From a candidate division WWE3 bacterium (GTDB taxonomy: Bacteria; Patescibacteriota; WWE3; 2-01-FULL-39-13): a stretch of DNA of 64,000 nucleotides. Of this stretch, positions 1-32,364 are shown piece after piece. Location: positions 18,317 to 82,316 of the forward strand of contig JALWZX010000011.1 in assembly GCA_027002375.1 (NCBI GenBank), written 5' to 3'. Each line of letters opens with the position of its first letter. Position 1 is the first letter of the stretch. Both the position numbers and the translations under genes were made by a program. The notes beneath the pieces are model-generated. The model worked only from the letters and a program-made list of their open reading frames with translations. It was not told the DNA's origin and did not search any database.

Positions 1-49
1 TACGCAACTACCAGCTTTACAAGCGCTATGGACACGATATAATTCTTGC

Positions 50-568
50 ATGGGACAACAAATCAAGCGTATTCCTCGTACAGAAATAGGAAAAAGGTTA
101 ACCCTCGAAAGCATTCAGGATATCCTATACGGCACAGATTACCAACTGAATACTTTAGATACTGGTGAAGAAATTATCGTGGGAACAAGAACAGATGTAG
201 AAAACCCATTAAACAGATTTGCACATACGAACAACGAATATCTTTTTCCACTTGCTGTTACGACTTATGTTAATGTTTGGGAACATGGACTCGGCGTTCT
301 ACATATTACCACTCCAAATCGGGGGCGTCCCGGTTCACGCATAAAAGTAACCGTGATATGTGCAGTACCTGAAAAAAACGACAAATTTGTAGGATTAGGT
401 TTACTTGGACCTACCGTTAACTTCACCAATGCGTCTATCTATATTAATCAGATTGAACAACTAATGAGAAATGTGCAAGAAACACATAATACAGATTTTA
501 CAGATTACTCTCCGCTGTTTGAATTAATCCGTGCAATAAGCCACCCTACCTCGGCAGATAACTCTTGA
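50..568 (+). CDS. hypothetical protein (172 aa)
   Basis: Intact ORF with no recognisable motif. A possible -35/-10 (TTACAA..TATAAT) lies at 20-46. It ends with TGA. Confidence 0.35.
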   Translation: MGQQIKRIPRTEIGKRLTLESIQDILYGTDYQLNTLDTGEEIIVGTRTDVENPLNRFAHTNNEYLFPLAVTTYVNVWEHGLGVLHITTPNRGRPGSRIKVTVICAVPEKNDKFVGLGLLGPTVNFTNASIYINQIEQLMRNVQETHNTDFTDYSPLFELIRAISHPTSADNS

Positions 569-2087
569 AATTCTCAGGTGTAATGTAAACCTTAGTAGTT
601 TTCCCTGTAATAATTTCTAGCGCGGCTTTGCGTGCCATATTCTCTAACATTCTCTGAAGCGAACGAATTCCACTATCAAAACCAAGAGGTCTAATCAAAA
701 CTGGCCAAACATCTGGCGAAAACTCTAACTGATCTTCTTCTAGCCCTGTTGTCTGACGAACACGTGGCAATAAATAATCGCGCGCAATAGCCTGCTTTTC
801 TTCATCTGTATACGAACCCATCTTTATAACTTCCAAACGATCAAGCAAAGCCGCGCTAAACGTACCAATCTTATTTGCGGAAACAATAAACATCACATCA
901 GACAAATCAAACGGATAATCCAAATAGTGATCTCTAAACGATGTATTTTGCTCAGGGTCTAAAATTTCAAGCATTGTTGCCATAACATCAGCCAACAAAC
1001 CTGCCTGCCCAGATGCCTTATCAAGCTCATCAAGCAATATTATTGGGTTTCGCACATCTGTTCTAACCAATGCCTTAATTATCTGACCAGGTTCTGCACC
1101 TTCAACGGCCTTATTTCTTCCACGAATTTCTAAAATTGAACCAATAGCACCCATTGAAATACGATAAAACGGCCTATTTAATGCTTTTGCGATACTCTTT
1201 GCCATTGTAGTTTTACCTATACCCTGAAGCCCCACCATACACAAAACTGGCGATCTTTTCATAGCCTTAAAATCCTTCTTTTGTGCCAACAATTTTCGCA
1301 TAGCAATATACTGTAAAACACGTTCTTTCACTGGCTCTAATCCATAGTGATTTGCATCCAACGTCTGCTTAACTCGCTCAATATCTAAAACCTCATCTGC
1401 AAACTTGTTCCATGGAACCTTAACCACCCAATCAATATAATTACTCAAAATGTCGTATTCACGCGAATAAACACCCGTTCGCGCCATTCTTTCTAAACGC
1501 TTAATCATCGTATAAATCTGTTCTTTTAAATCTTCAGGCGAAGCACTTTGTTCAATCTTTGTTCGCAATGCTTCAATTTCCTGCATTTCTTGACTATTTT
1601 TATTTGTGGAAATTCCGCCGTTCATTCCACTCCCCTGCTTATTAACTGTTTCTACTCTTTCAGTTTGCGTACCACCATCTTGCTTACTACTTGCATAATT
1701 ATCATCGTGATTAGTCCCAGTTTGGGCGCTTAGGTTTTGATTAACATTATTCTGACCAACGCTACTACTAATATCAGCCTGCCCAATGCTGTCCCGATTA
1801 GTACCTATTTGAGTGTCTAAATTCACGTTAACGTTATTCGGCCCCACATTACCGTCAACACCAAATTGCCCAGTGCCATTTTGATTGGTTGTACTTTGGC
1901 CAGTTACTTCTCTAACATCACCACCTTGATTACCACCCGTTGTATTGTCTTGATTTGAACTAGAATTGTTTTGAGAATTAAAACTACCAACAGAACCCGT
2001 ATTTACAACATCGTTTCTATTATTTCCCCCACTAAAATCATTAAAGGAATTATTATTTGAAAAAGAATTGTGTTGGGCAGTATCCAT
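546..2087 (-). CDS. Lon-family AAA+ ATPase module without peptidase S16 domain, with N-terminal Q/N/G/T-rich low-complexity region
   Basis: Walker A is GLQGIGKTT. The sequence is collinear with the LonA helical and AAA+ core (HYGLEPVKERVLQYIA..., ILLDELDKA, LLDRLEVIKMGSYTDEEK, sensor-2 GIRSLQR). The ORF ends just after ...ITPENFKSYLPR, where the LonA protease domain would begin. No Ser-Lys dyad region (GPSAG) is present. The N-terminal ~170 aa are N/Q/S/G-rich. Confidence 0.75.
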   Translation of the reverse strand: MDTAQHNSFSNNNSFNDFSGGNNRNDVVNTGSVGSFNSQNNSSSNQDNTTGGNQGGDVREVTGQSTTNQNGTGQFGVDGNVGPNNVNVNLDTQIGTNRDSIGQADISSSVGQNNVNQNLSAQTGTNHDDNYASSKQDGGTQTERVETVNKQGSGMNGGISTNKNSQEMQEIEALRTKIEQSASPEDLKEQIYTMIKRLERMARTGVYSREYDILSNYIDWVVKVPWNKFADEVLDIERVKQTLDANHYGLEPVKERVLQYIAMRKLLAQKKDFKAMKRSPVLCMVGLQGIGKTTMAKSIAKALNRPFYRISMGAIGSILEIRGRNKAVEGAEPGQIIKALVRTDVRNPIILLDELDKASGQAGLLADVMATMLEILDPEQNTSFRDHYLDYPFDLSDVMFIVSANKIGTFSAALLDRLEVIKMGSYTDEEKQAIARDYLLPRVRQTTGLEEDQLEFSPDVWPVLIRPLGFDSGIRSLQRMLENMARKAALEIITGKTTKVYITPENFKSYLPR

Positions 2088-2182
2088 GTGATTAGTATAT
2101 CAAAGGTATGTTTTTATAAAAAGCACATTGTGAAGCTTGCACAGTCATCATTTTGCACTTTTCTCACTAAAGCGAGTATAGA

Positions 2183-2698
2183 TTACTGAGCAAAACCAGA
2201 GTAATCATCGTTGTCTACAACAGTAACGCTCGTTTTCACATTTCCTGACTGAGTATTATTAGTGGAATTCGTATTCGTTTCTGTATCACCAGTTGATATA
2301 CCATCATAATCAGAATTTGTATTGTTCGTATTTGAAGGCAAAGTCACGTTACCAAACCCATCGCTGTCCTCATTATTCTTATTTTGCCCACTATTTCCCG
2401 TGCCAAACCCGTCATAATCTTGGGAATTAGCATCGTTATTCATATCACCATTGTATTCTGTCTCAACACCAGCAACTGCACCATTATCGTTATTTTGATC
2501 TGTAGCATCAACTTTTTCTACAGGTGCTGTATCAGTAATCTCTTTATTTTCTGTGCCACTAGTAGTTGCATCATCATGTGCAACTTGGCTTTTCTTAGAC
2601 ACAATTACCCCTGCTACTGCGCCGAATCCAACAAAAAGAACTACTATAACAATTGGTATTATCATTGATTTAAATTCCATTTTAATTTTAGTTGTCAA
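2183..2698 (-). CDS. membrane-anchored low-complexity protein (N-terminal TM, D/N/G/T-rich tail with D[YS]DG[FI] repeats)
   Basis: Hydrophobic segment IIPIVIVVLFVGFGAVAGVIV. Repeated DYDGFGTG/DSDGFGN/DYDGISTG/DYSGF motifs. Confidence 0.45.
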   Translation of the reverse strand: MTTKIKMEFKSMIIPIVIVVLFVGFGAVAGVIVSKKSQVAHDDATTSGTENKEITDTAPVEKVDATDQNNDNGAVAGVETEYNGDMNNDANSQDYDGFGTGNSGQNKNNEDSDGFGNVTLPSNTNNTNSDYDGISTGDTETNTNSTNNTQSGNVKTSVTVVDNDDYSGFAQ

Positions 2699-2766: not shown

Positions 2767-4239
2767 TTAGTTCTGCCCTTCGACTTTTGGCAAACGTCCA
2801 AATAATATTATCGAAGGCTCTACCATTTCACCCGATAGTATATCACAGATGGTCTGACTTGTCTTTACCAAAATTGGCTTTAATAAAACACCTATATCAA
2901 AAACTTTATCAAATACATTCTGCAAAATCTCTGCTTTTTCTTTATCATTCTTTTTCCATGGTTCATTCGCATTCAGATACTCGTTTGATTCCCTAACTAA
3001 TTGGGAAATCTCATTAATAACGTCATGAAGGCGGAATTCCTCATAACTATTCAAAATATTTTCATGCTCAGATATAACCTCTTGATACTCACGAACTTCG
3101 GCTAGAACTTCAACATCACGCCCCATTTTATTAATTCGCGAAACTAAATTGCCTAGCCCATTAACCAAATCAGACGTATATTTACTATCAAACAAACCAA
3201 AACTTGCATCAGAATCGTCTTTGTATGGCAAATAAGCAAGCACCAAATAACGCGTAGCATCGATACCATAACGATCTATTAGAGCTGGAACATCAATAAC
3301 ATTACCCTTAGACTTACTTATTTTATCACCACCAACAGTTAAAAAACTGTGAACAAACGTAGACTTAGGAACATCATACCCTGCAGAAAGCAACATCGCT
3401 GGCCAGATAACATTATGAAACCACGAAATATCTTTACCCAAAACATGCGTAGCGTACTGCCAAAAATCTTGATTTTTATTAATTTCTAGAGAAGATAGAT
3501 AATTGATCAACGCATCTACCCAAACATAAACAGTTTGTTTGTCATCATCAGGAAAACCAACAGCCCATGAAACCTTATCAGCAGGTCTTGAAATACTTTG
3601 ATCTTCTAGCCCACCCTGAATTCTTGCTACTATTTCGTTCTTCTTACCAATTGGGTAAATTTTAAGAGTATCATTTTCTATTAATTTAAGTAGTTTATCA
3701 GAATATTTAGATAGCTTGAAAAAATAATTTTCTTCTTCAATCTTTATAACCTGATCTGGCCTATGAAGTGGGCACAAACCATCTTCAGTCATCTCGGATT
3801 TTGTTAAAAATTTTTCACACCCATAACAATAAACACCTTCGTACTTATCTTTATAAACATCACCTGCGTCAATCAATTTCTGCACAAAATTTTTAACAAA
3901 ATCCTCATGCTCCTTATTCGTTGTTCTTACAAAATAATCATAAGAAATCAACACATCATCAAATTTTTCTTTAAAATAATTCGACCTCATATCAACATAA
4001 TCTTGTAAATTATCATACCCAAGCTTTTTCGCAGACTGCTCAACCGTTGTACCATGCTCATCAGTGCCTGTGGTAAAAAACACGTTTTGACTTCCAAATA
4101 ACAATCTATAATGTCTAGCCAAAACATCCGTAACAGTAGTCGTCAAAAGATGCCCAATATGAGGCTCGCCATTAGCATAAAAAATCGGCGTAGTTAAATA
4201 TTTCTTTCTATTCATTTTATTATCATTAGTGGAATTCAT
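2767..4239 (-). CDS. metG: methionyl-tRNA synthetase (short form, no C-terminal tRNA-binding extension)
   Basis: HIGH motif (PHIGHLLT) and KMSKS motif (KISKSKGN) are present. A zinc knuckle (CYGCEKF...CPLH) is present. It has a class I aaRS anticodon-binding helical C-terminus. Confidence 0.9.
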   Translation of the reverse strand: MNSTNDNKMNRKKYLTTPIFYANGEPHIGHLLTTTVTDVLARHYRLLFGSQNVFFTTGTDEHGTTVEQSAKKLGYDNLQDYVDMRSNYFKEKFDDVLISYDYFVRTTNKEHEDFVKNFVQKLIDAGDVYKDKYEGVYCYGCEKFLTKSEMTEDGLCPLHRPDQVIKIEEENYFFKLSKYSDKLLKLIENDTLKIYPIGKKNEIVARIQGGLEDQSISRPADKVSWAVGFPDDDKQTVYVWVDALINYLSSLEINKNQDFWQYATHVLGKDISWFHNVIWPAMLLSAGYDVPKSTFVHSFLTVGGDKISKSKGNVIDVPALIDRYGIDATRYLVLAYLPYKDDSDASFGLFDSKYTSDLVNGLGNLVSRINKMGRDVEVLAEVREYQEVISEHENILNSYEEFRLHDVINEISQLVRESNEYLNANEPWKKNDKEKAEILQNVFDKVFDIGVLLKPILVKTSQTICDILSGEMVEPSIILFGRLPKVEGQN

Positions 4240-4404: not shown

Positions 4405-7400
4405 TTAGTTTACGCAAGAATTCAAGTCAACTTTTGCGTTCCCCTTACAATACATATAAGTTTCTACATCTGACGATTTATTGCATGTGTTATCTAATAT
4501 AAATCTATCACATCTTTTCTCGTTATTTGTGCTTGAAACTAAAACAAGATTTAAATCACCGCTTGGATCACTACTATAAAAGTCGTTATCAAACCTAAAC
4601 ACTATGTCACCATACGGATAAAACCCATCTAAAAGTGGCACCCTAAATGGGTATTTATGATTTGATAAGTCTTCTACAAATGCTGTTCCAATCAACCTAT
4701 CATTCAGCATTATAGAAAGTTTCGCCCTTTTAGATTTAGCGATACCAGACACCTGCGATCTAGCTATCACGTATTCGATACGGCTGTTCTGCGTATCATC
4801 GCCGACAACTCTTATATCTCCGCCACAATACATGTGTAAGTCGAAATTCTCATCAAAAAAGTTATATTTGCAGTATGAAGCAGATAAATTGTCATAAACT
4901 ACATTAGTATCATTATCTTTAATACTCTTTATTACCAAGTTAACGTCTAAACCTGATTCTTCAGACGAATCATCGTTATCATAAACAAAATCCAAATCTT
5001 TTATATCAGTACCTACAGGCACTTCTACAACATAATCATTAAAATCATCTTTATCAATATAAACACTAGTATACTTTGTATCACCATTGTAGACAGAAAT
5101 TCTCGGCAACCTGTCAACATCACCAAAATTCTCTTTCTTTGCCGACATAACTATTTTTTTAGTTCGCGGACTTTCAGGTTTCAAGCACCTTATTGCAACG
5201 GGTGAATTCCAAATTTCAGTATCATTCCCACCTGTACCTTCTATATTTTTAGCAACAATATAAACCTTATGCTCCACTTCGTCATTTATGTAATTATCTA
5301 AATTCACAGAAAACCCATGATATGCGAATTTCTTTCCACCGAATTGTACTTCGAGATCGCTTCTATAATCATCGGCAACCATATCTTTAATTCTATTACT
5401 AGGGTCATCTATCGCTATATTTATACCAACGCCCTCTGCTGGTTTGTCTTGATCCCTAACCCATCCTTTTACAGTACATATGTCATTTTTAGCCACAACC
5501 ATACCTTGTGGGTCAAATAAGTTCAGGTCATTAATAACGTCGGTAGCTTCGTCTGAACAACCATCGTCACTTATCACTACTTTGTATTTAAATTTACTAT
5601 TTAGGGGGAATTCATCAGTTGTATTTCGCTCATCCTTGTAGTTGTACACATCGGCGAAATTGTAATCAGTATTTTTTGCAACAGCAACGTTGTTAACAAT
5701 GGTCTTCTCAACAGTTATGCCATCAGACACATAAATTCTGCTTAATTTTAACCGTGCACCATCTGAAATATCAGACCCTGTCTTTATGCTTACTGTAACT
5801 TTAACCGATGGGGCTGGATTTATTGATTGTATCACATTAATATTATCGAATTTAATACTATTATCCGAGAAACATATATTGCCTGGTGGCGGATTATTAT
5901 CGATTGTATATTTCAATAAATACCACGAATGATTTTTAACCTTTATCGTGTCATTACTTAAATCAACCGTCTTAGGTGCCACAGTGTTCAACACATTATC
6001 AGCATTTCTGTAATCTACCAAAACACCATTCAATGCACTACGATCTGCATCATATATACAGCTACTACCCCTGCTCTCTTCATAACATCCAACAACATAT
6101 TCTTGAACATTAGACTTATCTAAATTAAGTCCACCCGGTAAATTTAACTTTACGCTTGAATAACCATCTCTGATATGCCTGTTAACGATTACAAAATAAA
6201 CAGCATTCTTTTTATCTGTATAAGCGTATGTGCTAACAGTTTCTTCCTTGTCATTATTTGTTTCTAACATATATGGTGCCCTCGATATGTACTTGTCATA
6301 TAATTTAAAGGTTAAATACGGAGGACTAACATTTCCATACCCACTTATAATTGAATCGCCGCCCCATGTAGAGAAGTGCGTAGCACCATATACCCCCAAT
6401 TTTGCGTATCTACTCAACATGTCAGCGGTAAATAATTCATCCGAAACGGTACCCCATGCCACACTGGTCGAACCTGAAGTTTCCCATTCTGTTGGTATAT
6501 ATTTAACATTAGAAAGCCCTTTGTTATTCAAATATTGAGTAGAACATTCATAAAAAGCATCTAAGAACTTATAGCTTTCAATATCTTTTTCTATTTTACT
6601 TTTAACATTATCAGAAAGATTAACATTTACATTCCCAATAACAATCTCTTTACCACGTTCATCTGACGTAACAATTTCGTTTACACTTCGATCGCAATAG
6701 ACATCCTTACCGTAATTCGCAAGTGAGTTGTCTACACATGCCTTCTTGTCAACACTATCGTTTACCCTACACAATCCATCACCCCATGCGCGAAGTGGGT
6801 AACTGTGAGGTGTCCAAAAATCTGGTTTCGCAATATTACCGTTATCAACTTTGTTAAAACCGTCCCAAAACCCATTCAAACTATATTTCCATGAATCACC
6901 GTAACCAATATATGCACCAAGTTCTACATCAGAATATCTCTGTTTAAATCTTTTTGCAAAAAGTGCGTACATTTCGCCATACAATTTATAACGCGCATAA
7001 ACTCTGTCGTGTCCAATACCATAATTATAACTATTATCATAATTGGTCCACCAAATCTCGGGCTCTGAACCAAACTCTACATATTTAATAGGCTTTCCAA
7101 CTTCTTTTGAATAATCAATTATGTCAAAAAGTTCGCGAATCATCTCATCGAAATCAGGATTGTTTATGACATCATTTCTAATTGCGTCGGCATTTGTATT
7201 GCAGTGCCCGCTTTTACAACTTGACGGTTCTATAGTCGCCCCTGGTTGTACAGAAAAGATAAAATCGCCATTTATACTCTTGGCTAAAGATAAGTATTTA
7301 TCTAATAACCCACTTGTTAAAGGAAATCTACCATCTTTAAAAACAACACGATTAAAATCACTATCATCTACCAGCTCTTGCCCAACCGAATTCCCATTAT

Positions 7401-10400
7401 TATCAACTTCTCTTATACTAAATTTGTCAACTATCAATTTAGTATTATCGTCATTTCTGTCAGTTAACCCAATAACGATTCTAACCACCCCAGCATCTTT
7501 ATTAAGTAACGGATTATATGTAAAGTAGATACTTTTGGTTTTATGATTAGAAGTATTATCAACGTTTTGTACATTCTCATCAAACAACATTGTAGATCCA
7601 ATATAAAACCTTAACTGATCTTTATATACAACCGTTCCCCTTAATCGCATTTTGTTATTAACCATAGCATGATCACCTATTACAGAGTATACAACTGACA
7701 CTTTATATTTAGCACCTTTCTTAAACTTTTTGGCATCAATATATTGAAAAATTCTACCACTTCGAACAAATTCTACAGAACTACCATCATACTTTTTTAT
7801 ATAGTCATCCGAACCAGATGCGAATGACCATTCGTTAATATCTGGGTTTGGTATATACACATAAGATTTGTCACTATACCTGTATAAAGGCACTTTCAAA
7901 TCTTTTAATGGTGCAATATATAAACTCTCATCGTTTTCATTCAAGACTGACGATGCCTTAGGCGTTAAATTTTGACCTAGAAGAGCTCTACTAAAAGCTG
8001 AGACATACTTATTTTCGACATTCATCTCTAAACTTGAAATTTCTGTACCAGAGAATCCAGTTATTTCGTCAGTTTCGTTGTCATTAGTTACATTTTTCAT
8101 CAAAGTAACATTATCAATATAAAAATCGTTTGAGGCATTTGAATCTGAAAGAAAGTATAAATTATACTTTCTTCCGCTATGTGCTTTGAACACTAGATTT
8201 ATATTATCCCAATTCTCAGATTTGCTAACATCTTGTACAACAACAACACTGTCATCAGTAGCATCCTTAATAAAAACCCTCAATTTTCCTCTCTCTACAA
8301 ATACATCTGCACTAATAGAATATGTATTAGAATCTAGCAACAAATCACTATCATATTTAATTCCCACCTCTGCACCTTCTGCGTGAATCTTTTGACTCTT
8401 TTTTCCGGTAGCTGATTTGACACTCGTAACCAAGAATCCCTGTGGGACTGTTACCGGCCCCACTCTTCGCCATTTATTACCTACTGTACCAACAGTACAA
8501 ACCTGTGATTTCTCAACCTCAGTTTTGGTGTCATTAGTTTCAAAACCTGCCGAATCGCCTACATCAAATGTTTGTACGCCTGTGCCGGCTGTCGTAAGAA
8601 TTAATTCACTAATAACATCTCTACCATCACTGTTATCCTTTAGCATAATATCGAAACCGTTTGGCCATCGTGGCTTTAAGTAATCAGGTAAGTTAGAATT
8701 AGAATCCCCAATAGCACCATTAAATACAGGGTTCTCTATTATCCACGATCCCGACACCCACTTTTTAGTATTATGTTTTTTGACTGTGACCAATTTAGTT
8801 GATCCACTTTCCCCAGCGTACACAATATCAAATGTACCGTTATCATTGTCTAACCACGTCATTTTCAACAACACTTTTTTACCATTCAACTTTTTCACCC
8901 ATTCATCGTCAACATCTATTAGTATATTTTTATCAATGTATCGCGCAGAATAATATCTCCAATCGTTTTTACCTTCCCCAGTTGATTTAGTCAGGTCTCT
9001 AAATTCCTTATCCTTAGACCAAGCTGTTAAATCATCACTATTTTTTGGCGACCACCTATTAGCTAATTCCAAATCAGTTTTCATACCGTATGTGTAATTA
9101 AAATAATCAAAACAATAAAAGTTATCGTTGACGGGCCGACCTTTAAAAGTTATCCATATAGTATCGTTGTCTTTTGGTGGAATTCCTAGGTATTTATTAC
9201 CGAATGCTATTATATCTTGTGGTATCTTATACCACGATCCAGTTACTGGATCATTTGGATCATTAGACATCCATAACATTATTCTTCTATTCCTTCTAGC
9301 AACTGAATTTCTAAAAGTCCACTCGAACAATGCTCTAGATGACACATATGGTTCATAGAAATGATGATATTCTCTATTAGACGGATACCCCCACCCTAAT
9401 GCCTCAGCTTCTAACCACATGGTATGCATATGCACATCAAAATCGGCGGGCGTGTACTTAGGATATTGTAACTGCATATAGATCCTGTTGTATCTCTTGT
9501 CAAATGCTTTCAAACATCCAGTCTGAATAGGATATAGACCACTTTCTTGAATTCCAACTCTGTATTTAGCCAAATACTTACGCCATGCCTCACCCATAAA
9601 TGGAAAAACATAACCTGAACTGGTCTGTACTGAAATATCCTTAGACACATCTTTCCACTCTTCCCCAATCTCAGATACAACGGGTACAATATAATCGTAA
9701 ACATATCTAGGATCCTTAGTCTCTTTGTACTTATATGAGGAATTCATAAACGCATCTCTCCACGCGTCTGTTGAACACCCGCCATATTGTGTAGTCATCC
9801 ATGGCTTAGCTTCACCAGCTGACCCTGGACCATAAACAACTCCTATAACACGATCGTCATTCTTAAATTCTTTTGCAAAGCTTCTTGTCCATTTCTTCAT
9901 TTCACTAATTGTGGAGGGCGACAAATAATTCAGTCTCCATGCCGAACATTTCGCATCGTCATTTACATAAATCATGTTACTGGGGTTTGAAGCTATTCTT
10001 TGTGGAACGTATGCATCGTACTGTTGCCCGTTTGGAAGTTTACTAAAATCACTATATCCACTGGACATCAATCTGATAATAACTTTGTTTTCAGGTCTAA
10101 GCTTGTTCAACTGATTCTTAATTCTGCCCCAATCGCCATCCGTTTGCGCCCAAGAAACATTCATTAAGATAATGTGAACACCAGGGTTCCTATCTATCCA
10201 CCTTTGAGCATCGTCTATATCGCTCCTATCAACCATTAAGCCACTTGTGTTAATCGTATCCTTACGCACTGGCTCCGGAAGCTTGTATGTCTTTACATCC
10301 ATATCGTCAGAATCGTTAGGGATAATTCCACCGGCTGGTATGTTTTCTACATTATCCGACAAGTCAGGTGTACTATTTTTTTCATTCTGCGACGCATCGT

Positions 10401-11211
10401 GTACAACTTCATACTCAACTTCTAGCACAGGAGATATATCAATAGTAGAAGAGTGTTCTTTAGAGTAAAAGTTATATTGAACATTGCTAGATGAAAAGGA
10501 ATCTATATACATACCATTATTCTTTATTGTTCCATTTACCAAATCTTGAATTAAATCGGTAACGTCTATCGTTACATCACCATTTATACTAGAAATCATA
10601 GGCGATTGTGCATAAGTCTTGTCACCCATTTGTGGCCTTGTATTCCACGTTACACTTCGCTCGTTCCAATCACCTTCAACACCTTTCACTTTAAACCAAA
10701 TAGAATTTTCATTACTTCTAGCATTAACATGCAATTTTAATTTAGCACTTCTTATAACTTTTCCATTTAATTGGATTAGATCAAACTTTATTAATGGTCG
10801 TTTTATACCTGGCCTAACCGCAACTTCTGTAATATTACCGGCATTGACATCTGGATTCCATCTATCAACAAAAGTGTCTTCTACAGCTCCCAAGTTAACT
10901 CTTGAAACACCCAAAACCTTCGTATCTTTAGATATGCTTGCACTGTTACCTTCTACATTAGCCATTGATAGTTCATGCACATAATCAGGGCATACGCCTT
11001 CAGTAGTAAAGGTAGCATTGTGTACACCACCCTCAAAATCACCATTAACAATTTTACTGGAATCTTCTGACGAGGCTTTTTGTATAAAATTTACACTAAG
11101 AAAAGTAGCACCAACTAATACAAAAGCTAGAATTGCAAGCAAAATTACAACAAGATAATTTTTCCTGAGAATCTTAACACGATAATATAACTTCTTAAAA
11201 GGTCTGGACAT
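4405..11211 (-). CDS. giant (2268 aa) membrane-anchored surface protein with DNRLRE-like module, two glycoside-hydrolase-like TIM-barrel regions and beta-sandwich/CBM-like modules
   Basis: N-terminal TM anchor (LVVILLAILAFVLVGATFL). DNRLRE-like motif (RPLIKFDLIQLNGKVIRSAKLKLHV). Clan GH-A-like signatures (YVEFGSEPEIWW ... IPTEWETSG). A second TIM-like region (GVVYGPGSAGEAKPW...). Several Ig/CBM-like stretches. Confidence 0.7.
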   Translation of the reverse strand: MSRPFKKLYYRVKILRKNYLVVILLAILAFVLVGATFLSVNFIQKASSEDSSKIVNGDFEGGVHNATFTTEGVCPDYVHELSMANVEGNSASISKDTKVLGVSRVNLGAVEDTFVDRWNPDVNAGNITEVAVRPGIKRPLIKFDLIQLNGKVIRSAKLKLHVNARSNENSIWFKVKGVEGDWNERSVTWNTRPQMGDKTYAQSPMISSINGDVTIDVTDLIQDLVNGTIKNNGMYIDSFSSSNVQYNFYSKEHSSTIDISPVLEVEYEVVHDASQNEKNSTPDLSDNVENIPAGGIIPNDSDDMDVKTYKLPEPVRKDTINTSGLMVDRSDIDDAQRWIDRNPGVHIILMNVSWAQTDGDWGRIKNQLNKLRPENKVIIRLMSSGYSDFSKLPNGQQYDAYVPQRIASNPSNMIYVNDDAKCSAWRLNYLSPSTISEMKKWTRSFAKEFKNDDRVIGVVYGPGSAGEAKPWMTTQYGGCSTDAWRDAFMNSSYKYKETKDPRYVYDYIVPVVSEIGEEWKDVSKDISVQTSSGYVFPFMGEAWRKYLAKYRVGIQESGLYPIQTGCLKAFDKRYNRIYMQLQYPKYTPADFDVHMHTMWLEAEALGWGYPSNREYHHFYEPYVSSRALFEWTFRNSVARRNRRIMLWMSNDPNDPVTGSWYKIPQDIIAFGNKYLGIPPKDNDTIWITFKGRPVNDNFYCFDYFNYTYGMKTDLELANRWSPKNSDDLTAWSKDKEFRDLTKSTGEGKNDWRYYSARYIDKNILIDVDDEWVKKLNGKKVLLKMTWLDNDNGTFDIVYAGESGSTKLVTVKKHNTKKWVSGSWIIENPVFNGAIGDSNSNLPDYLKPRWPNGFDIMLKDNSDGRDVISELILTTAGTGVQTFDVGDSAGFETNDTKTEVEKSQVCTVGTVGNKWRRVGPVTVPQGFLVTSVKSATGKKSQKIHAEGAEVGIKYDSDLLLDSNTYSISADVFVERGKLRVFIKDATDDSVVVVQDVSKSENWDNINLVFKAHSGRKYNLYFLSDSNASNDFYIDNVTLMKNVTNDNETDEITGFSGTEISSLEMNVENKYVSAFSRALLGQNLTPKASSVLNENDESLYIAPLKDLKVPLYRYSDKSYVYIPNPDINEWSFASGSDDYIKKYDGSSVEFVRSGRIFQYIDAKKFKKGAKYKVSVVYSVIGDHAMVNNKMRLRGTVVYKDQLRFYIGSTMLFDENVQNVDNTSNHKTKSIYFTYNPLLNKDAGVVRIVIGLTDRNDDNTKLIVDKFSIREVDNNGNSVGQELVDDSDFNRVVFKDGRFPLTSGLLDKYLSLAKSINGDFIFSVQPGATIEPSSCKSGHCNTNADAIRNDVINNPDFDEMIRELFDIIDYSKEVGKPIKYVEFGSEPEIWWTNYDNSYNYGIGHDRVYARYKLYGEMYALFAKRFKQRYSDVELGAYIGYGDSWKYSLNGFWDGFNKVDNGNIAKPDFWTPHSYPLRAWGDGLCRVNDSVDKKACVDNSLANYGKDVYCDRSVNEIVTSDERGKEIVIGNVNVNLSDNVKSKIEKDIESYKFLDAFYECSTQYLNNKGLSNVKYIPTEWETSGSTSVAWGTVSDELFTADMLSRYAKLGVYGATHFSTWGGDSIISGYGNVSPPYLTFKLYDKYISRAPYMLETNNDKEETVSTYAYTDKKNAVYFVIVNRHIRDGYSSVKLNLPGGLNLDKSNVQEYVVGCYEESRGSSCIYDADRSALNGVLVDYRNADNVLNTVAPKTVDLSNDTIKVKNHSWYLLKYTIDNNPPPGNICFSDNSIKFDNINVIQSINPAPSVKVTVSIKTGSDISDGARLKLSRIYVSDGITVEKTIVNNVAVAKNTDYNFADVYNYKDERNTTDEFPLNSKFKYKVVISDDGCSDEATDVINDLNLFDPQGMVVAKNDICTVKGWVRDQDKPAEGVGINIAIDDPSNRIKDMVADDYRSDLEVQFGGKKFAYHGFSVNLDNYINDEVEHKVYIVAKNIEGTGGNDTEIWNSPVAIRCLKPESPRTKKIVMSAKKENFGDVDRLPRISVYNGDTKYTSVYIDKDDFNDYVVEVPVGTDIKDLDFVYDNDDSSEESGLDVNLVIKSIKDNDTNVVYDNLSASYCKYNFFDENFDLHMYCGGDIRVVGDDTQNSRIEYVIARSQVSGIAKSKRAKLSIMLNDRLIGTAFVEDLSNHKYPFRVPLLDGFYPYGDIVFRFDNDFYSSDPSGDLNLVLVSSTNNEKRCDRFILDNTCNKSSDVETYMYCKGNAKVDLNSCVN

Positions 11212-11366: not shown

Positions 11367-12572
11367 ATGACCACTGAAATAACATACTTAATATCATCAA
11401 TAATTGTTACCTTTACCTTATTTGGTGCAGTAATGTATTTCATGAACAAACGTTTCAAAGAAATTCAAGACAAGAATTCCACCAAAGAAAAAGATGAAAT
11501 ATTAACAAAATGGCTTGAAAACATGCAACAAACTCTAGAAACTCGACTTGAAAATGTGCAAGGAACTGTAAACGGGCAACTAAAAAATGTTCAATCTGAA
11601 TTACACCAAACCACAAATACATTAAACAAACGATTCGATTCAAATGCGCAAGATCTAAACAAACGTCTAGACCACTCTGCAGAACTAATGAGCAAACTGC
11701 AAAAAGAACTTGGCTCAATGAGTGAAATTGGTCGAAGCATGAAAGATCTGCAAGACTTTTTAAAATCACCAAAATTAAGGGGAAACATAGGCGAAGAAGT
11801 TTTAAAGGATATGCTAGAACAAATGCTGCCATCTGATCAATACAAACTGCAACATACCTTTTCTACAGGCGATCGCGTAGATGCTTTACTAAAACTAACA
11901 GAAGGTTACGTGTCTGTTGACTCTAAATTCCCAATGGAAAATTTTACAAAAATGATGCAAGCTGAAACACAAGATGATCGTGAAAGATGTAGAAAAGACT
12001 TTCACAAAGATGTTAAAAAGCATATTAATGACATTTCGAAAAAGTACATATTAACAGATGAAGGTACTGTGGATTTTGCTTTGATGTACATACCTAGCGA
12101 AGCGATTTATTACGAAGTGGTAGTAAACAACCCAGAGCTTGGCAAATATGCTTGGGAAAAACGCGTTTTACCAGTATCACCAAACGTATTTTACTCTTAC
12201 TTAAAGGCAATAATGATAGGTTTAGAGGGCAAAAAAGTAGAATCACGCGCGAAAGAAATTTTAAGACAAATTCAGGGTATCAAAAAAGATGCAGAAAAGT
12301 TTTCTGATGGGTTGCGGGTTTTAACAAAACATATAACAAATGCTAAAAACTCTGCCGACACAGTAAATAGCAGCTTCGAAAAACTAGACGCAAAAATTGA
12401 CAATTTAAGTAATGTTCAAATAGCTGGTGAAGAGAAAGCAAATATAATTGAAAGTGATATGGGGAATTCAACCGAAAATGTTGCATTAGAATCGAATTCA
12501 AATGATTCAAATGGCAAAAACAACAGCACCGACACCTCGCATGATTCAGAACAAATTGGTTTGATAGATTAA
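11367..12572 (+). CDS. rmuC: DNA recombination protein RmuC
   Basis: N-terminal TM followed by a long coiled coil. Conserved RmuC core (PKLRGNIGEEVLKDMLEQMLP ... VDALLKLTEGYVSVDSKFPMENF ... MYIPSEAIYYE). Confidence 0.8.
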   Translation: MTTEITYLISSIIVTFTLFGAVMYFMNKRFKEIQDKNSTKEKDEILTKWLENMQQTLETRLENVQGTVNGQLKNVQSELHQTTNTLNKRFDSNAQDLNKRLDHSAELMSKLQKELGSMSEIGRSMKDLQDFLKSPKLRGNIGEEVLKDMLEQMLPSDQYKLQHTFSTGDRVDALLKLTEGYVSVDSKFPMENFTKMMQAETQDDRERCRKDFHKDVKKHINDISKKYILTDEGTVDFALMYIPSEAIYYEVVVNNPELGKYAWEKRVLPVSPNVFYSYLKAIMIGLEGKKVESRAKEILRQIQGIKKDAEKFSDGLRVLTKHITNAKNSADTVNSSFEKLDAKIDNLSNVQIAGEEKANIIESDMGNSTENVALESNSNDSNGKNNSTDTSHDSEQIGLID

Positions 12573-18825: not shown

Positions 18826-21800
18826 TTGAGTATGAACCTGTCCAACATATTTGCAAAAATCAAGAAACGTCTTGCTATTGTCTCGTATTTGCAAAAGTGC
18901 TCTATTTATTTAACAGATATTGCCACCAAATTTTATGCACATTTGTCAAAGCGCTTTTACTGCTATGACAGTGCGAACGCACATATTGCGTTACTCTTAA
19001 GTATCCCTAAACTAATCGAAAAACATCTACAGCGTTCTTTTGCGGTTTTAATAACCCCAGCTAAAACCCTAATGATTTTGCTTCTAATATTATTTTTAGT
19101 GGTCGGTCCATTAACAACAAGCATGTCCTATGCTCAGAAAGAAAACGTGAGAAACAATCAGTCAGTCTACAAGTCTGATACCACTTCTCCTATCAAAAAT
19201 GTGTTACTAGCACTAAAAGACAGTGAAGGCGCCAATAAAGGTGATAAAACAAGTAAAGATATTCAAATTCCCACTACAAAACCACCTTTAGAGCCAGAAA
19301 ATTCAGATAACGTAATTCAAGCAAATAAGCCGATAAAACTTAAAATCAAAGATGAAACCATTAAAGCTAAAAAGTTGAGATACATTGTTGAGCGTGAAAA
19401 AACGCATGAAATGATCGAAGTCACTAGCATAATTGATGATATTAATAACCAGTTGGTATTAAAGCCAAAAAGGGCATTTAGACCGGGAAAATATAAGTTA
19501 CAAGTAGTAGAAAATATAGACGTAGACTCGACCAAAAACGAAAATGTACAAGCAAAGCAGAAAGACGCCAATAACGCACAAACAAAACCAAGCAATAACG
19601 ATCAGTCACCAACAGAACAACCCAATACTGATCGATCGACAACAGACCAAACTGACAACTCGTTAGATGAACAAGTCAACAGTACACAAACAACTGATTC
19701 CCCTTCTCAGCAACCTATATACGAACAAGAATTTTTATGGGGAGTCTTAGCATACAATAGCGACAAGGCACAATACCTATTGTATGAAACCGCTCAATTT
19801 CAAATCGGGGTCCTTGACGAACAAGGAAACATAATTTGCGATGCTGACATCGATTTAACAATCACAAACAAAGATGCAAATCATAAAACCATATTATCAA
19901 CGAAAACAGGCACTATAACTGAAAGCAACGAGTGTATTAAACATGATTTCACTCTAGAACCTGACTACAAGAGCGAATTACAACTCACCCATTCAGGAAA
20001 ATATACGGTAGAAATAACAGCAACAACAAAAAATGGAACATATAAAACAACCGATTCTTTTGAAGTAATAGAACCAGATGATGTTCCGTTTTTAATACAA
20101 AGAAATACGCCAACAAGAGTCTATCCAAAAAAAGATTATCCAGTTGAAATAACAATAATTCCAAATGAAGATTTTAATGGCGAAATTGTTGAAACAGTAC
20201 CAAGAGATTTTCTAATAAAAAGATCATATCTTGGAATTCCATATACAAATATTCAAAAAACGTCAGGAGATAAAAAAATAATATGGAAAATCAAGCTAGA
20301 AAAAGACGTGCCTGTGATTCTCTCTTATAAATACGATGCGCCGAATATATCACCACAATTTTATTTATTAGGTCCGATAGAGTTTGTGAGAACAACTGAA
20401 ACCACTACCCTATCTGATGAACCGAACCAAGATACTGATAATAATCGAAATCTATACAAAGATAATGAGTTAGATAACGCCAAAGATAAAAACAATAACA
20501 AGAACGCCGATAAAAACAACAGTACAAAGAAAAGCGATAATAACCAACAAACCAAGAATAAAAGTCAACAAAATCAAAATCCAAATCAACGAGACCAAAA
20601 TAAAATTAAAAATGTCGAGACTATAAGAAATATTGATATACCCTCGATAGACCTCGAACCAAACAACACCTACGCATCTAAAGTAACGACAAATAAAAAA
20701 GTAATATTTACAGAACAGAGAGAATGGCAGCTTGCCAATGACGCTATCGATGATTATGCAATATACACAGACACAAATGGAACACATGATACTGATAACT
20801 CATCGTACACAGGCGTACCCTTCAACAATCAAGTAGCACAGGGAGGTATCTTTACTCAAAATGCCAACGACATTGATGTAGGTTTAGGTTCTGATGGTCA
20901 CTATTTATTTGGATATGTAATACAGGCTAGAAACGATTCGTATGGCAATCGTATCTCTTATCTGTCTAGGGTCACATTAGACGAAACAGAAAATTTAACA
21001 GGACACGGCCAAGGGTATAGAAGAAACGCAACAAATGACAGATATTACACATACGGATATGGAATTGTAAATGCATCTTCTGGTGATAACATACGTGTAG
21101 AAGTTATTAGACAAGGTGATAATACAGCGTCACACACATTAGAAGCAAACCGATCCTCTTTTTGGTTAGTTAAATTAGACGACGATTGGGCATATTTAAA
21201 GTTACAAGGCCAAGACAATCAATCAACCTCGACTTCCCTGCAAGATATTAACTTTACCACATCGATAGAAAATACAGATACGGATACTTTTGGACACAGT
21301 ACGTCGACAAACTCAAATCAAATTACATTGAAATCATCAGGTCATTACTTGGTCACATACTCTGTAGGTGTTGACGGCGCTACAAGCAGAACTTCTGTAA
21401 CAACAAATTTAGCACTGAACGGTACAGCAATACCACAATCATATGATTACTCATACATACGATCGTTAAACTCTACAACACATGGTACTGCAACAAACAT
21501 GTCGATCATAAACGCATCTGCAAACGACGTTCTAACTTTAAAATGGGGCGCTACTGGTGCACACAGTTCATATGGAACTCAAACAAGATCAGACCGAACG
21601 TTTATTGCAGTTGTTAAATTGCCTGACGATGGCGATTATTTAATGGCACATGACACAAGTGGGACTCAAAACGTAGGCGGGTTAAACAATACGCTAACAT
21701 TCGACACATCAGACGAGGCAGATTCAACTTCTTTTTCATTTAGCACATCAACAGGTACAGCTACAATACAACAAGATGACACCTATTTATTTATGAGTGG

Positions 21801-24800
21801 TGCAAGAAGTAACAGAACAACAGGTACAGCCCGTCTAACAAGTGCGGGTTTATTTTACGTAAATGGGACACAACAAAGTGTTGGAAACACAGGTGTATAT
21901 GTCAGAGGTGATCAAGGTACACCAGACACATTTGATGGAGGCTGGACTGGTGCTGGCATTTTTGACCTGTCACAAAACGATCAAGTAACATTTAGACAAG
22001 TTGATGAAGGTGATAACGGTGGTGACGATAAGTTTGTAGCAAATGCACTCGGTTTAACCGCAATAAACCTAGATACAATCTTAATTCCAGTAACAAACGA
22101 TAGCCCTAATGCACCACAAACACCTTATGTAAATAATGATACAGCTCAGAGTGGGCAAGCTTCCCCTGTTTCTAACTTAACTGATATAACACCTGCGTTT
22201 TCTGCAATTTATGATGATAATGACGCATCTGATACCGCCCCTTTTTACCAAATTCAAGTAGGTGACGATACAGATTGGTCAGATGCACCAGAACTTTGGG
22301 ACAGTAACAAATCTTCTCTAACAACAGCCGTAAACGAAAATTCAAGATCTGAAGATATTATATATAATGGAACAGCTCTAACTGCAGGCTCAACATATTA
22401 CTGGCGAATAAAGTTTTGGGACAATAACGGTGCAGAAGGTGCGTGGTCAGCTACACAGCAATTTAGCATGGCAACAAATAACGATCCAAACGCACCACAA
22501 ACACCTTATGCAAATAACGATACTGCGCAATCCGGTCAGGTATCACCTGTTTATAATTTAACAGATACTACACCGGCCTTCTCTGCGATTTATGATGATG
22601 ATGATACTACAGACAAGGCTTCATATTATCAGTTACAAGTAGGTGACGATACAGATTGGTCAGATGCACCAGAGCTTTGGGACAGCACCAAGACGGCATT
22701 CACAACATCATTAGATGAAAATTCTAGGTCAGACGATATAATTTACGGTGGCTCTGCACTAACACTTGGCTCAACATATTACTGGCGAATAAAGTTTTGG
22801 GACAACAGAGGTGGTGAAGGCGCGTGGTCAGCTACACAACAATTTTCTCTAGCAAGTTCAGTCGGTAATGATGGCGACGTGGCAATTTATCAAGATACAA
22901 ATGGAACACATAATACCAATAATACATCATATACTGGCGTTCCGTTTAATAATGTTGTAACGCAAGACCCAACTTTTTCTCAAAACGCAAATGATATTGA
23001 CGTAAAACTTGTAAATGGTGGACACTATCTAGTTGGTTACAAAGTAGAAGCTCAAAACACATCTTACGGAAACAGAATTGGCTATCTGTCAAGATTATTG
23101 CTAAATAGTACAGAAGAATTATCGGCACATGGGCAGGGTTATAGAAGAGATGCAACGAACAACCGTTACTACGCTTACGGTTATGGTATTATAAGTGCAA
23201 ACGCGAGTAATAATATTAGGGTTGAAGTAATTAGAAACGGTACTAATTCTGCAGAACACGATCTCATTGCAAATAAATCTAGTTTCTGGTTAGCTAAACT
23301 AACAGATTCTTGGGCGTATTTAAGATTACAAGGTCAGGATAATCAAACGACATCGACTTCCCTACAAGATATAAACTTCACAACTTCTATAGAAAATAGT
23401 GATACGAATACATTCGGTCATAGTACATCAACTAACTCAAATCAAATTACTCTAAAACAAGCAGGCCATTATTTAGTTACGTACAATGTCGGTATAGACA
23501 GTACAACAGATAGAACATCTATTACGACAAACCTTGCTCTAAATGGGACTGCGATACCGCAATCATATGGTTACGCTTACGCTAGAGGTTTAAACGGTGC
23601 AACAGATGCAACAGCATCAAACATAACAATAATAAATGCATCCGTAAACGATATTTTAACATTAGAATGGGGCGCAACAGGCGCATATGCAACAAATGGA
23701 TCTCAAACAAGATCAGACAGAACTAGTATTCAAATTGTAAAGCTACCAGACACAGGTGATTATTTGCGAATTCACGAAAATACAGATGGTCAAGATATCG
23801 GTGGTCTAAATAACACAATAACATTTGATACATCAGATGAGGCAGATGCTAACTCTTTCACCTACTCTACCTCAACAAGCCAAACAACAATAAATAAAGG
23901 TGCTTTTTACATTTTTACATCAGGCGCACGGACACATAGAACAACTGGTGGCACAAGGTTAACCTCTAAAGGCGCATTTTTTATAGATGGCACTCAATCA
24001 GACTTAGCTAATACAGGTACTTATATTAGAGGTGTCCAATCACCAAATAATACACTAGATGGTGGTTGGTCAGCCGGCGGAATTCTATCGTTATCAAAAA
24101 ATAACGTTGTTGATTTTAGACAAATAGACGAAGGTGGCAACGGAGACGATGATAAGTTTGTCGCAAATTCATACGGAATAACAGCAGTAAACCTAAATTC
24201 TTTCTATACAATCTCAATATCAGGAACGTGCCAACAATACGATGAATCTACCAATTGTGCAAATGGTGAAACAGTAAAAGTAGCAGTAGACGGCCAACTA
24301 CAATCGCAAACCACAACAACATCATCGGGCACCTTCACAATTTCGGGTATTCCTAAACCAGCGAAAAATTCAGTAATAACCGTATTTCTCGACAATGTTA
24401 GTGATTCGAATGAGGCTGTAACAATAACTAAATACGCTGGCTCAGGTGATATATCAAATCTAAAACTATACGAAGAACATCTTACTTTAGGAAACGAGTC
24501 AAACACATCACCAATATCGAATTCTGATGTTGCCAAATACGACAACTCTGTCTCATCAGATGAAGATATATTTTTCGACGTAGACTCTAGTAATAACTTA
24601 ACGGTCGACTATACAGCACAATCAACACAAGAAAAATTATATGTACTAGCTAACAACACTTTCAGGCCAGATGACACAAATGCAACAACTGTTACTACAG
24701 AAAAAGTAAAAGTAGACGGGGGGCTAACGCTAGATCAAACAACATTCAAGATAACTGGATCTGGTACTGGTTCAAGTGTACCAATAACTTTTGGCTCAAA

Positions 24801-29826: not shown

Positions 29827-30915
29827 ATGGCATACAAAACAGTTCCTACCCCAAAGATTAAAACATTTAGTAAGTTAACATTAACTTTAGTACTTTCTAT
29901 TACTATACTTTTGGCGTTAAGTTCCCATTCATTAGCACAAGAAGACACCAACACTCAAGAGCACAAACCAACGCCAGAGCTTATAAACGAAAAGCCATCT
30001 ACCAAAAATGACACAAACACTAACCAAAATAACAATCAAAAAACAGATACTCCTACGGAAGATACGGTCACAGACTCTACCACCATAGCCGTATCGCCAC
30101 CAACATTCGAGTTGGTAACAAACCCAGGCACACAAATCAAAAACACAATAAAAGTTAGTAACCCATCAGACAAGCCTATACATGTAACAACAGACATCAG
30201 AAACTTTGTGGCAGTCGGTGAAGAAGGCGCGGTAAACTTGACAGATGAAGACACAACTTATTCCCTAGCAAAATGGATAACAATAGCACCAACAAATGCA
30301 ACAATAAAACCAAAATCAACAGAAATTTTCACGTTCATAATCAACCCCCCTACGAATGCAGAACCAGGTGGCCATTTTGGCTCAATAGTATTTAGAACTG
30401 GGGGAAATCAAATCAATGAAACTGGTGCCTCAGTTGCACAAGAAGTTGCATCATTAATATTACTAAAGATAGCAGGACCTACTACAGAAAAAGCAACTCT
30501 AGAAGAATTCAAAACAACAGACTCAGTATACCAATCGATACCAATAACCTTTGAATATAAGGTAAGAAACGAAGGTAACGTTCACATTAAACCAACAGGA
30601 AAAATAACCATAACTAACATATTTGGCAAAGAAGTTGATTCATTTGCAGTTCCACCAAAAAATGTATTACCAAGTGCAACTAGAAAAACAGACGTAAATT
30701 ACGATAAAAAAGATTTGTTTGGTAAATACAATGCTACACTGGTATTAACCTATGGTGCAAACAATGAAACATTAGTTTCAAACACAATCTTTACAGTAAT
30801 TCCTGTTAAAAAGGTTGCTGTAGCACTTATAATAACTGCAATAGTCTTGTTCTTACTACTAAAAGGCCGTAAAAGAATATCGATGTCTCTAAAAGTACTA
30901 TTTGGAAAACAATAG
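29827..30915 (+). CDS. CscA/DUF916-like cell-surface protein (signal peptide + C-terminal TM anchor), paralog 2
   Basis: Signal peptide ...SSHSLAQ. Core shared with 27228-28352. C-terminal TM VAVALIITAIVLFLLL plus KGRKR. Confidence 0.55.
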   Translation: MAYKTVPTPKIKTFSKLTLTLVLSITILLALSSHSLAQEDTNTQEHKPTPELINEKPSTKNDTNTNQNNNQKTDTPTEDTVTDSTTIAVSPPTFELVTNPGTQIKNTIKVSNPSDKPIHVTTDIRNFVAVGEEGAVNLTDEDTTYSLAKWITIAPTNATIKPKSTEIFTFIINPPTNAEPGGHFGSIVFRTGGNQINETGASVAQEVASLILLKIAGPTTEKATLEEFKTTDSVYQSIPITFEYKVRNEGNVHIKPTGKITITNIFGKEVDSFAVPPKNVLPSATRKTDVNYDKKDLFGKYNATLVLTYGANNETLVSNTIFTVIPVKKVAVALIITAIVLFLLLKGRKRISMSLKVLFGKQ

Positions 30916-32239: not shown

Positions 32240-32246
32240 TGGAACA

Positions 32247-32278
32247 CCGACAGCTTATGCAGTCGGCATTTTGCGTTT
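32247..32278 (+). terminator. terminator-like hairpin (CCGACAGC-ttat-GCAGTCGG) + TTTTG
   Basis: Located 8 nt after the stop of 30902-32239. The same hairpin plus T-run is repeated after groEL at 60634. Confidence 0.55.
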
Positions 32279-32337: not shown

Positions 32338-32364
32338 TGTTGAAGTTATGAATAGTAAAATATA

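Follow-up and report, generated by a model that had tools for sequence, protein, structure and literature searches.

Lon proteases are described as single fused ATPase-protease chains, at least in the consulted part of PMC9569914. Here, we report on a gene that encodes the ATPase half only. It is located on the minus strand of a stretch of 64,000 nucleotides (nt) from a candidate division WWE3 bacterium (contig JALWZX010000011.1, assembly GCA_027002375.1, positions 18,317 to 82,316), in the following called the window. Its product of 513 amino acids (aa) comprises the helical, AAA+ and lid module of a LonA-type Lon but neither the N domain nor the S16 peptidase domain. An earlier note, made from the letters of the window, had described a Lon-like ATPase without protease domain. 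This core claim is right, and the family context, the change of the pore and the linkage to pnp and rnj make the gene worth following.

The closest described proteins are those of the LonA type (TIGR00763, MEROPS S16), e.g., E. coli Lon, M. taiwanensis LonA and LONP1. From the pre-domain to the lid, the family to which the window protein belongs shares about 40% identity with LonA, the same fold, identical Walker A/B, sensor-1, arginine finger and sensor-2 residues, and 56 invariant positions. In contrast to LonA, it lacks the PF02190 N domain as well as the PF05362 S16 Ser-Lys peptidase, shows GLQG instead of GPPG in the P-loop and GAEPGQ instead of GAMPG[RK], and has both pore-loop aromatics replaced. 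Furthermore, the window protein scores below the cut-off of TIGR00763.

LonC of Meiothermus taiwanensis is, according to the consulted parts of its descriptions, a Lon-like protease without ATPase activity that partly acts as a chaperone (PMC3391209, PMC13069640). As far as these parts reach, LonC and the family are alike in being Lon derivatives that lost one of two coupled activities, but they are mirror images: LonC keeps the protease along with an inert AAA-like domain, while the family keeps the ATPase without the protease. The window protein fits neither LonB nor LonC, i.e., it has no S16 domain, its ATPase motifs are intact and no LonB-type hydrophobic (membrane) insertion is visible in the AlphaFold2 model of its AAA+ module.

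ClpX and HslU, which belong to the HCLR clade as Lon does, are separate AAA+ polypeptides without a peptidase domain of their own. They have aromatic pore loops, ClpP/HslV docking elements and genes that are usually found beside that of the peptidase. In contrast, the family lost the pore aromatics and no partner peptidase was found nearby. BrxL (BREX Lon-like protein) is a Lon-related module outside of classical proteolysis, but the window protein shows no PADLOC match to BrxL and no BREX neighbours, and the family has a housekeeping context. The D1 ring of p97/Cdc48 is a non-threading AAA+ ring with an intact nucleotide site and aliphatic pore-loop residues. It belongs to a different AAA+ clade with homology to the family limited to the AAA+ core, and serves as an analogy only. 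Both the Lon N domain and the S16 domain are also known to occur on their own. In the full-text library we searched, no description of a protease-less Lon or of Lon in Patescibacteria was found, an absence that holds for that library. A conserved Lon motor that stands alone would fill a gap in the picture of Lon, which is taken to be an obligate fusion of ATPase and protease.

Domain architecture of the ATPase

The gene and the domains of its Lon-like part are as follows.

546..2087, minus strand: ATPase gene, 513 aa, complete (from the list of open reading frames (ORFs); ATG start; stop codon TAG at 546-548 read directly)
1350..1607, minus strand: helical pre-domain, residues 161-246, which corresponds to the end of the N-terminal helical region in LonA (TIGR00763 aligns from profile position 248)
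816..1349, minus strand: AAA+ alpha/beta nucleotide-binding subdomain, residues 247-424 (Pfam AAA; fold match to Lon modules)
549..815, minus strand: Lon-type lid (small alpha subdomain), residues 425-513 (Pfam Lon_lid at 447-499)

Pfam assigns AAA (PF00004) to residues 282-421 (7.6e-19) and Lon_lid (PF22667) to residues 447-499 (1.7e-08) of the protein, with no match to PF05362 (S16 Ser-Lys peptidase) or PF02190 (LON substrate-binding). The NCBIfam Lon equivalog TIGR00763 aligns at profile positions 248-571 of 795 only (354.7 bits vs. a cut-off of 608.05) and the E. coli-type Lon model NF008053 at 248-579 of 784 (253.5 vs. 891). A sequence search of the PDB aligns residues ~168-511 to solved LonA/LONP1 chains with E-values from 3e-81 to 1e-72. 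These alignments stop short of the Lon protease domains, and the ATPase terminates 2 residues past the last aligned Lon position. Given a 43-sequence family alignment, AlphaFold2 models residues 161-513 with confidence (predicted local distance difference test, pLDDT, mostly 85-97) and predicts pre-domain helices at 161-179, 185-204, 208-223 and 236-246 (pLDDT >90). The top Foldseek matches of the model in the PDB are all Lon AAA+ modules, e.g., 6n2i with a target TM-score of 0.88. That is, Pfam, NCBIfam and PDB agree on a Lon-like part (residues 161-513) that is made of the helical, AAA+ and lid module and ends at the S16 boundary. Both the Lon-like nature of the ORF and its stop where the S16 peptidase domain should begin had been claimed before and are confirmed.

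The ATPase is a LonA-derived AAA+ module truly without an S16 domain. Terminal pieces of up to seven full-length Lons (the last 225-230 and the first 220-240 residues) served as tblastn queries; they detect every full-length Lon locus of the control set. With these, neither an S16 nor a LonA N domain was found within the 64-kb window or within ~10 kb of ~60 related short-form loci. L001, a longer copy of the window's contig, adds 7 kb in which Lon_C was not found either, and a Pfam sweep of the 29 other large ORFs in the window revealed no peptidase. The earlier note had suggested translating the minus-strand frames downstream of the gene in search of an S16 region. All three frames of positions 1-560 contain many stops and no S16-like sequence, such that a frameshift is not borne out. 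An identical ATPase gene is found on two independent assemblies and an identical protein on other assemblies of the same organism.

Two candidate explanations were rejected. A nearby or frameshifted protease domain is ruled out by the frame translations, tblastn and the Pfam sweep. Recoding is discarded, given that the TAG is followed by a second in-frame stop (TAA) 16 codons further and that the truncation is common to the family. The long ORFs obtained with table 11 furthermore argue against a reassignment of UGA.

A protease-less Lon family in Patescibacteria

We searched 5.8 billion proteins for homologues and assessed the family on the 120 best cluster representatives. None of them contains Lon_C (0/120), and nearly all are 353-400 aa long. 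Where names are given, they read “AAA family ATPase [Patescibacteria group bacterium]”, candidate division WWE3 or, for JGI entries, “ATP-dependent Lon protease”. Lon-like representatives of 529-973 aa were considered as further protease-less forms and rejected, as most of those checked turned out to be fragments or variants of canonical Lon.

For comparison, 126 short forms (i.e., the family has at least 126 members) were aligned with 73 full-length LonA. The short forms extend past the shared core by a median of 17.5 aa at the N-terminus and 3 aa at the C-terminus, compared to 255 and 215 aa for LonA. The window protein extends 0-2 residues past the lid, as the family architecture requires. 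In a neighbour-joining tree of the shared core, all 126 short forms group in one clade with no full-length Lon within, and the window protein is placed there with the other 125. Judged from this tree, the protease-less Lon-type ATPases are a monophyletic family that is conserved across Patescibacteria, i.e., the Candidate Phyla Radiation (CPR). No member of the family has the S16 peptidase or the LonA N domain. Because the C-termini of 126/126 aligned homologues fall within a few residues of each other, the truncation is not due to a frameshift, an assembly cut or recoding.

We also scanned one genome per species of GTDB and found 44 short-form loci. Their titles cover Saccharibacteria, Nomura-, Shapiro-, Ames-, Levy-, Woese-, Davies- and Roizmanbacteria as well as “Patescibacteria group”. 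Another 24 of these records are titled “uncultured Gammaproteobacteria” and the like, including “Pseudomonadales” and “Methanoperedens”. Among these oddly titled loci from metagenome-assembled genomes are L022, L023, L027, L028, L031, L033, L034, L037, L040-L044, L046, L048, L050-L052, L054, L056 and L061. Their GC content (0.33-0.48), synteny and RNase J match those of CPR loci, and most carry the PNPase-ATPase-RNase J cluster discussed below. We thus regard the non-CPR titles as unreliable; they look like taxonomic mislabels.

Among the matches listed, “ATP-dependent Lon protease” is the JGI/IMG name of P0021, P0023, P0027, P0038, P0056 and others. Given this name, metabolic or other reconstructions may credit Patescibacteria with a Lon proteolysis that this gene does not supply.

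ATPase site and pore loops

To relate the family to LonA at the residue level, the following motifs of the window protein are needed.

1206..1232, minus strand: Walker A GLQGIGKTT, residues 286-294 (K292 in 126/126)
1017..1040, minus strand: Walker B ILLDELDK, residues 350-357 (D353 and E354 in 126/126)
873..875, minus strand: sensor-1 Asn405 (126/126 family, 73/73 LonA)
837..839, minus strand: arginine finger Arg417, trans-acting (126/126 family, 73/73 LonA)
663-665, minus strand: sensor-2 Arg475 (126/126 family)
1083..1124, minus strand: pore loop 1, RGRNKAVEGAEPGQ, residues 322-335 (Tyr of LonA replaced by Val328)
975..1016, minus strand: pore loop 2 region, ASGQAGLLADVMAT, residues 358-371 (2-residue insertion; aromatic replaced by Leu364)

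The residues for ATP binding and hydrolysis by a ring ATPase are complete and invariant, from which the AAA+ site is predicted to be competent. The P-loop preface differs: LonA has GPPG where the family has GLQG, with L287 in 124/126 and Q288 in 123/126 members but 0/73 LonA.

The differences within the pore are stronger. The pore loop 1 tyrosine is present in 73/73 LonA and 0/126 family members, which show I (29), F (25), V (15), L (15), D (11) and others instead. The LonA stretch HRRTY[VI]GAMPG corresponds to RNKAVEGAEPGQ in the window protein; in terms of consensus, H-R-R-T-Y-[VI]-G-A-[ML]-P-G-[RK] of LonA faces R-[NSD]-K-[AS]-x-[PE]-G-A-E-P-G-Q of the family, where position 332 changes from M/L to E in 124/126 members. 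The aromatic column of pore loop 2 is F, Y or W in most LonA but Leu in 120/126 members; this Leu comes after the insertion of two residues, and LonA's RGDP motif is no longer present. According to cryo-EM of M. taiwanensis LonA, Tyr397 and Trp431 contact the substrate and both are needed for degradation (PMC8503904). The family's pore loop 2 column corresponds to this Trp431. The pore is also more acidic than that of LonA (E329, E332, and R335 changed to Q).

In total, 23 positions reach a conservation of at least 90% in the family but stay below 10% in LonA, and 56 invariant positions are common to both. The 23 family-specific positions concentrate in the P-loop preface, both pore loops and the lid, with GAEPGQ and GLxxDxMA fixed around the pore. 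The window protein carries all family signatures, i.e., GLQG, GAEPGQ, GLxxDxMA, W461 and DSGIR, each of which occurs in at least 90% of the family and less than 10% of LonA. This conservation pattern points to purifying selection on a re-tooled channel rather than to decay. The agreement with LonA that the earlier note called motif-for-motif therefore holds for the ATPase site, which is invariant in 126/126, but not for the pore. Its suggestion that the protein could act as an unfoldase is doubtful because both pore-loop aromatics are lost.

Proposed function

We consider it probable that the gene encodes a functional stand-alone LonA-derived AAA+ ATPase of a protease-less Patescibacterial family, which remodels its clients rather than degrading them. 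Without a cutting domain and with the family conserved across Patescibacteria, it probably reshapes proteins or complexes. The ATPase would assemble into a nucleotide-driven ring and spend ATP on remodelling, holding or releasing its clients, which would be proteins or ribonucleoproteins (RNPs). These would not be fed to a protease. That is, the “chaperone half” of Lon would have been made autonomous, with weak or no processive threading. In the window's subclade, an N-terminal tail (see below), which begins with a short conserved motif, would most likely serve as an arm for flexible tethering or recruitment.

Some observations weigh against this proposal. The LonA protease domain supplies much of the hexamer interface, such that a ring is not assured without it. 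The pore loop 1 site is hydrophobic in about 2/3 of the members (I/F/V/L; Phe in 25/126), so some threading is possible. A shorter product of 360 aa is possible as well, given a GGGGAG in front of an internal Met154. Since the inspected sequence amounts to ~71 kb of a ~1-Mb genome, a stand-alone S16 peptidase or a full LonA may lie elsewhere. Finally, we infer ATPase activity, ring formation and clients alike from the sequence.

In a minimal-genome superphylum that keeps the motor with a perfect ATPase site and a re-tooled pore, the family would provide a natural experiment on the long-debated chaperone-like activity that has been proposed for Lon independently of its protease.

Gene neighbourhood and possible roles in RNA turnover or proteolysis in trans

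We assessed the neighbours of the 44 species-level short-form loci, where 38, 37 and 34 loci were assessable for PNPase, RNase J and both, respectively. In 22/38 loci, a PNPase gene of the same orientation ends <1.5 kb upstream of the ATPase (within 400 nt in 15). RNase J starts on the same strand less than 1.6 kb downstream in 25/37 loci (within 400 nt in 14). Both flank the ATPase in 19/34 loci, neither in 9/34. Uracil-DNA glycosylase (UDG) sometimes precedes RNase J, and a Zn-ribbon membrane protein sometimes precedes the ATPase. The recurrent flanking by PNPase and RNase J makes the family a candidate for an uncharacterised step of CPR RNA metabolism.

A specific role as RNA-turnover ATPase, i.e., as motor of a Patescibacterial degradosome-like assembly that remodels PNPase, RNase J or RNP substrates, is possible but unlikely. 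It would refine the proposed remodeller rather than exclude it. Besides the above counts with their often short gaps (<400 nt), it is favoured by pnp and rnj being two of the three core non-redundant ribonucleases (rnj, rnc, pnp) that CPR are reported to retain almost universally (PMC12641178). On the other hand, gene order can persist without functional coupling in streamlined CPR genomes, and the pnp-ATPase-rnj cluster extends the classical nusA-infB-rpsO-pnp operon. In the window and its subclade, the gene adjoins neither pnp nor rnj; none of PNPase, RNase J or UDG is present in the 64-kb window. The acidic shift of the pore speaks against RNA threading, such that any RNA role would more likely be exerted on RNase proteins or complexes.

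Proteolysis in trans, for which the ATPase would dock on or mix with a separately encoded S16 peptidase or full-length LonA, is rather improbable. The protein does end exactly at the boundary of lid and protease with its ATPase motifs intact, and AAA+ proteases made of two components, e.g., ClpXP and HslUV, set a precedent. However, none of the searched regions contains Lon_C, i.e., neither the window nor the additional 7 kb nor the surroundings of the related loci. Furthermore, the substrate-pulling Tyr and the pore-loop-2 aromatic are lost, and 23 family-specific substitutions speak for a long independent evolution.

The subclade of the window shows another gene order. The two upstream neighbours within the window are listed below.

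2183..2698, minus strand: small single-pass membrane protein, upstream neighbour (ORF; N/D/T/G-rich tail)
2767..4239, minus strand: methionyl-tRNA synthetase (MetRS), conserved upstream anchor in the subclade (Pfam tRNA-synt_1g, 1.4e-87)

In the window and its nearest relatives, RmuC is followed by MetRS, then by a small gene that varies and by the ATPase; UvrD often lies a few kb beyond. MetRS is found upstream of the ATPase in the window, L012, L014, L015 and L010, the latter of which shows an intermediate order (MetRS, Zn-ribbon protein, ATPase, UDG, RNase J). The small membrane protein shares 44% identity with its positional counterpart in L012 (L012:5485-5922) but is not conserved in L014 or L015; neither Pfam nor PADLOC matches it. 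It has a strictly conserved C-terminus, GNVKTSVxVVDNDDYSGFA[QE], and D-Y/S-D-G-F motifs recur in its tail. This acidic-aromatic end could be a docking or degron-like motif; a link to the ATPase is uncertain.

The Zn-ribbon protein (310-342 aa) ends 3-6 nt before the ATPase start in L003, L008, L010 and L019 (L003:7024-7998, L008:4966-5994, L010:5065-5997, L019:8956-9780). It features an N-terminal Zn ribbon, one transmembrane helix and a ~200-aa domain without Pfam match. Its versions are mutually homologous (E-values from 1e-10 to 2e-91), but most loci, including that of the window, lack it. A universal partner gene was considered and rejected, since the Zn-ribbon protein is confined to a subset of loci and the small membrane protein is shared with L012 only.

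DNA-repair genes are located within a few kb of the ATPase in many lineages, namely RmuC and UvrD-type helicases, with UDG in other lineages. Instances within the window are found at 11367-12572 (plus strand) and 38850-41114 (minus strand), likewise in L001, L010, L014 and L015. This may merely be conserved CPR gene order.

N-terminal tail and gene start

The N-terminal part of the gene and its upstream region contain two further features.

1608..2087, minus strand: N/Q/S/G-rich tail, residues 1-160, predicted disordered (composition; no domain match; low pLDDT)
2094..2103, minus strand: extended -10-like motif, TTGATATACT, 6 nt upstream of the ATG

The tail consists of 19% N, 15% G, 12.5% S, 9% Q and 9% T with few charged and aromatic residues. 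It has no match in Pfam (E-values up to 10) or among PDB sequences, AlphaFold2 shows pLDDT <50 and no secondary structure, and Tandem Repeats Finder detects no DNA repeats in it. A hidden domain was considered and rejected on the basis of the Pfam, PDB sequence and AlphaFold2 results. Only the window's subclade has such tails, which are 30-285 aa long and resemble one another in composition without being identical; the window's is the second longest. Compared to the closest relative L012, with a 93% identical core, the tail is unalignable even at the DNA level. By these comparisons, the tail is a lineage-specific, fast-evolving, predicted-disordered later addition. N/Q-rich stretches also occur in seven other window proteins, such that its composition partly mirrors a genome-wide tendency. 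The earlier note's Q/N-rich low-complexity tail is thus real (160 aa), but it does not replace the LonA N domain, which is simply absent family-wide with a median N-extension of 17.5 aa.

Judged by frame and start conservation, the tail is coding and translated from a conserved ATG. Its frame contains 0 stops vs. 4-34 in the other five frames, and was stop-free in 0/5000 shuffles; in four lineages (the window and three others), stop-free frames occur in 0-11 of 5000 shuffles. The ATG and the first residues M(N/S)D(T/S/P)(A/V)(Q/R) are conserved across lineages. TTTG(A/T)TATACT is found 6-14 nt before the start in the window and, just upstream of position 6001, in L012, L015 and L006, with a variant in L014, i.e., the start context is conserved among lineages with ~77% core identity. 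From the sequence, TTGATATACT is a putative promoter element. A generic promoter/terminator scan of positions 1-2800 showed no excess of sites and did not flag this motif. There is no Shine-Dalgarno sequence between the -10-like motif and the ATG (2088-2103), which suggests a leaderless mRNA for the ATPase gene in the window's subclade.

Alternatively, the tail might be untranslated, with the product starting at Met154 (360 aa) and the upstream 460 nt being a 5' leader or a decayed ORF. The Shine-Dalgarno-like GGGGAG 4 nt before the ATG of Met154, a resulting length typical of the core family (353-360 aa) and a tail that lacks predicted structure and cannot be aligned with the closest relative are in accordance with this. 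We nevertheless give it only a small chance, since the frame statistics hold in three more lineages, lineages with ~77% core identity share the upstream ATG along with its TTGATATACT context and the first residues, and the internal Shine-Dalgarno-ATG combination is not conserved in L012.

The family might be the missing ATPase of a Patescibacterial RNA-degradosome-like machine, as a Lon motor without protease and with an altered pore that came to lie between pnp and rnj and remodels RNases or RNPs. The N/Q-rich tail of the subclade would then drive self-association or condensates, in analogy to the disordered part of RNase E in BR-bodies. We deem this combination improbable.

Downstream genes and defence

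Beyond the 3' end of the ATPase gene, the following ORF is encoded.

1..568 (ORF 50..568 in the window), plus strand: convergent ORF, 197 aa, not part of the ATPase system; its start is outside the window

The ORF, read at full length on the longer contig copy, shares 23 nt with the 3' end of the ATPase gene. It is the unrelated plus-strand ORF that had been noticed in the downstream DNA, and is real as an ORF. It shows no Pfam or PADLOC match, and the closest relative has an unrelated ORF in its place. On L001:11520-14082, three co-directional genes converge on the ATPase 3' end, encoding a 214-aa unknown, a 430-aa AbiEii-domain and a 197-aa unknown protein. They may be an AbiE-like toxin-antitoxin or abortive-infection module.

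A defence-associated Lon-like ATPase, either BrxL-like or part of such an AbiE-like module, had been suggested but is very improbable. Its support comes from the AbiEii-domain gene and the two unknown ORFs just past the ATPase 3' end, along with BrxL as a Lon-related module in defence. However, PADLOC reports no BrxL match on the window, with weak generic AAA matches only (best DolB, 28 bits). The neighbours of the ATPase in the window are MetRS, the small membrane protein and RmuC, with no BREX genes among them. The AbiE-like genes are convergent to the ATPase and absent at this position in relatives, and the family is found in a housekeeping-operon setting in dozens of species.

The chance that the gene is an artefact or pseudogene, i.e., a LonA cut by frameshift, mis-assembly or recoding, is close to nil: nothing more than the bare absence of the domain speaks for it, while the gene is identical on independent assemblies, the truncation is common to all 126 relatives, TAG is followed by TAA with all downstream frames closed, and strong purifying selection acts on the 56 shared and 23 family-specific positions.

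Other genes in the window

Two giant ORFs are encoded in the window: one of 2268 aa at 4405-11211 (minus strand) with a CBM96 match and a transmembrane-like N-terminus in its translation, and one of 2741 aa at 18826-27051 (plus strand) with Rha78A-like Ig domains. Ig, cohesin, CBM96, SH3 and PEGA proteins are located at 29827-33504, 42090-44144 and 48727-50034. Based on these domain matches, we consider them, together with the giant ORFs, a large surface or adhesion gene set. Furthermore, an AcrB-family RND transporter (1184 aa), paired with an HlyD-like adaptor, is encoded at 33675-38830 (minus strand), and a VirD4/TrwB-like type IV coupling ATPase (720 aa) at 52886-55048 (minus strand). Both the RND transporter and the coupling ATPase are somewhat unexpected in a streamlined genome.

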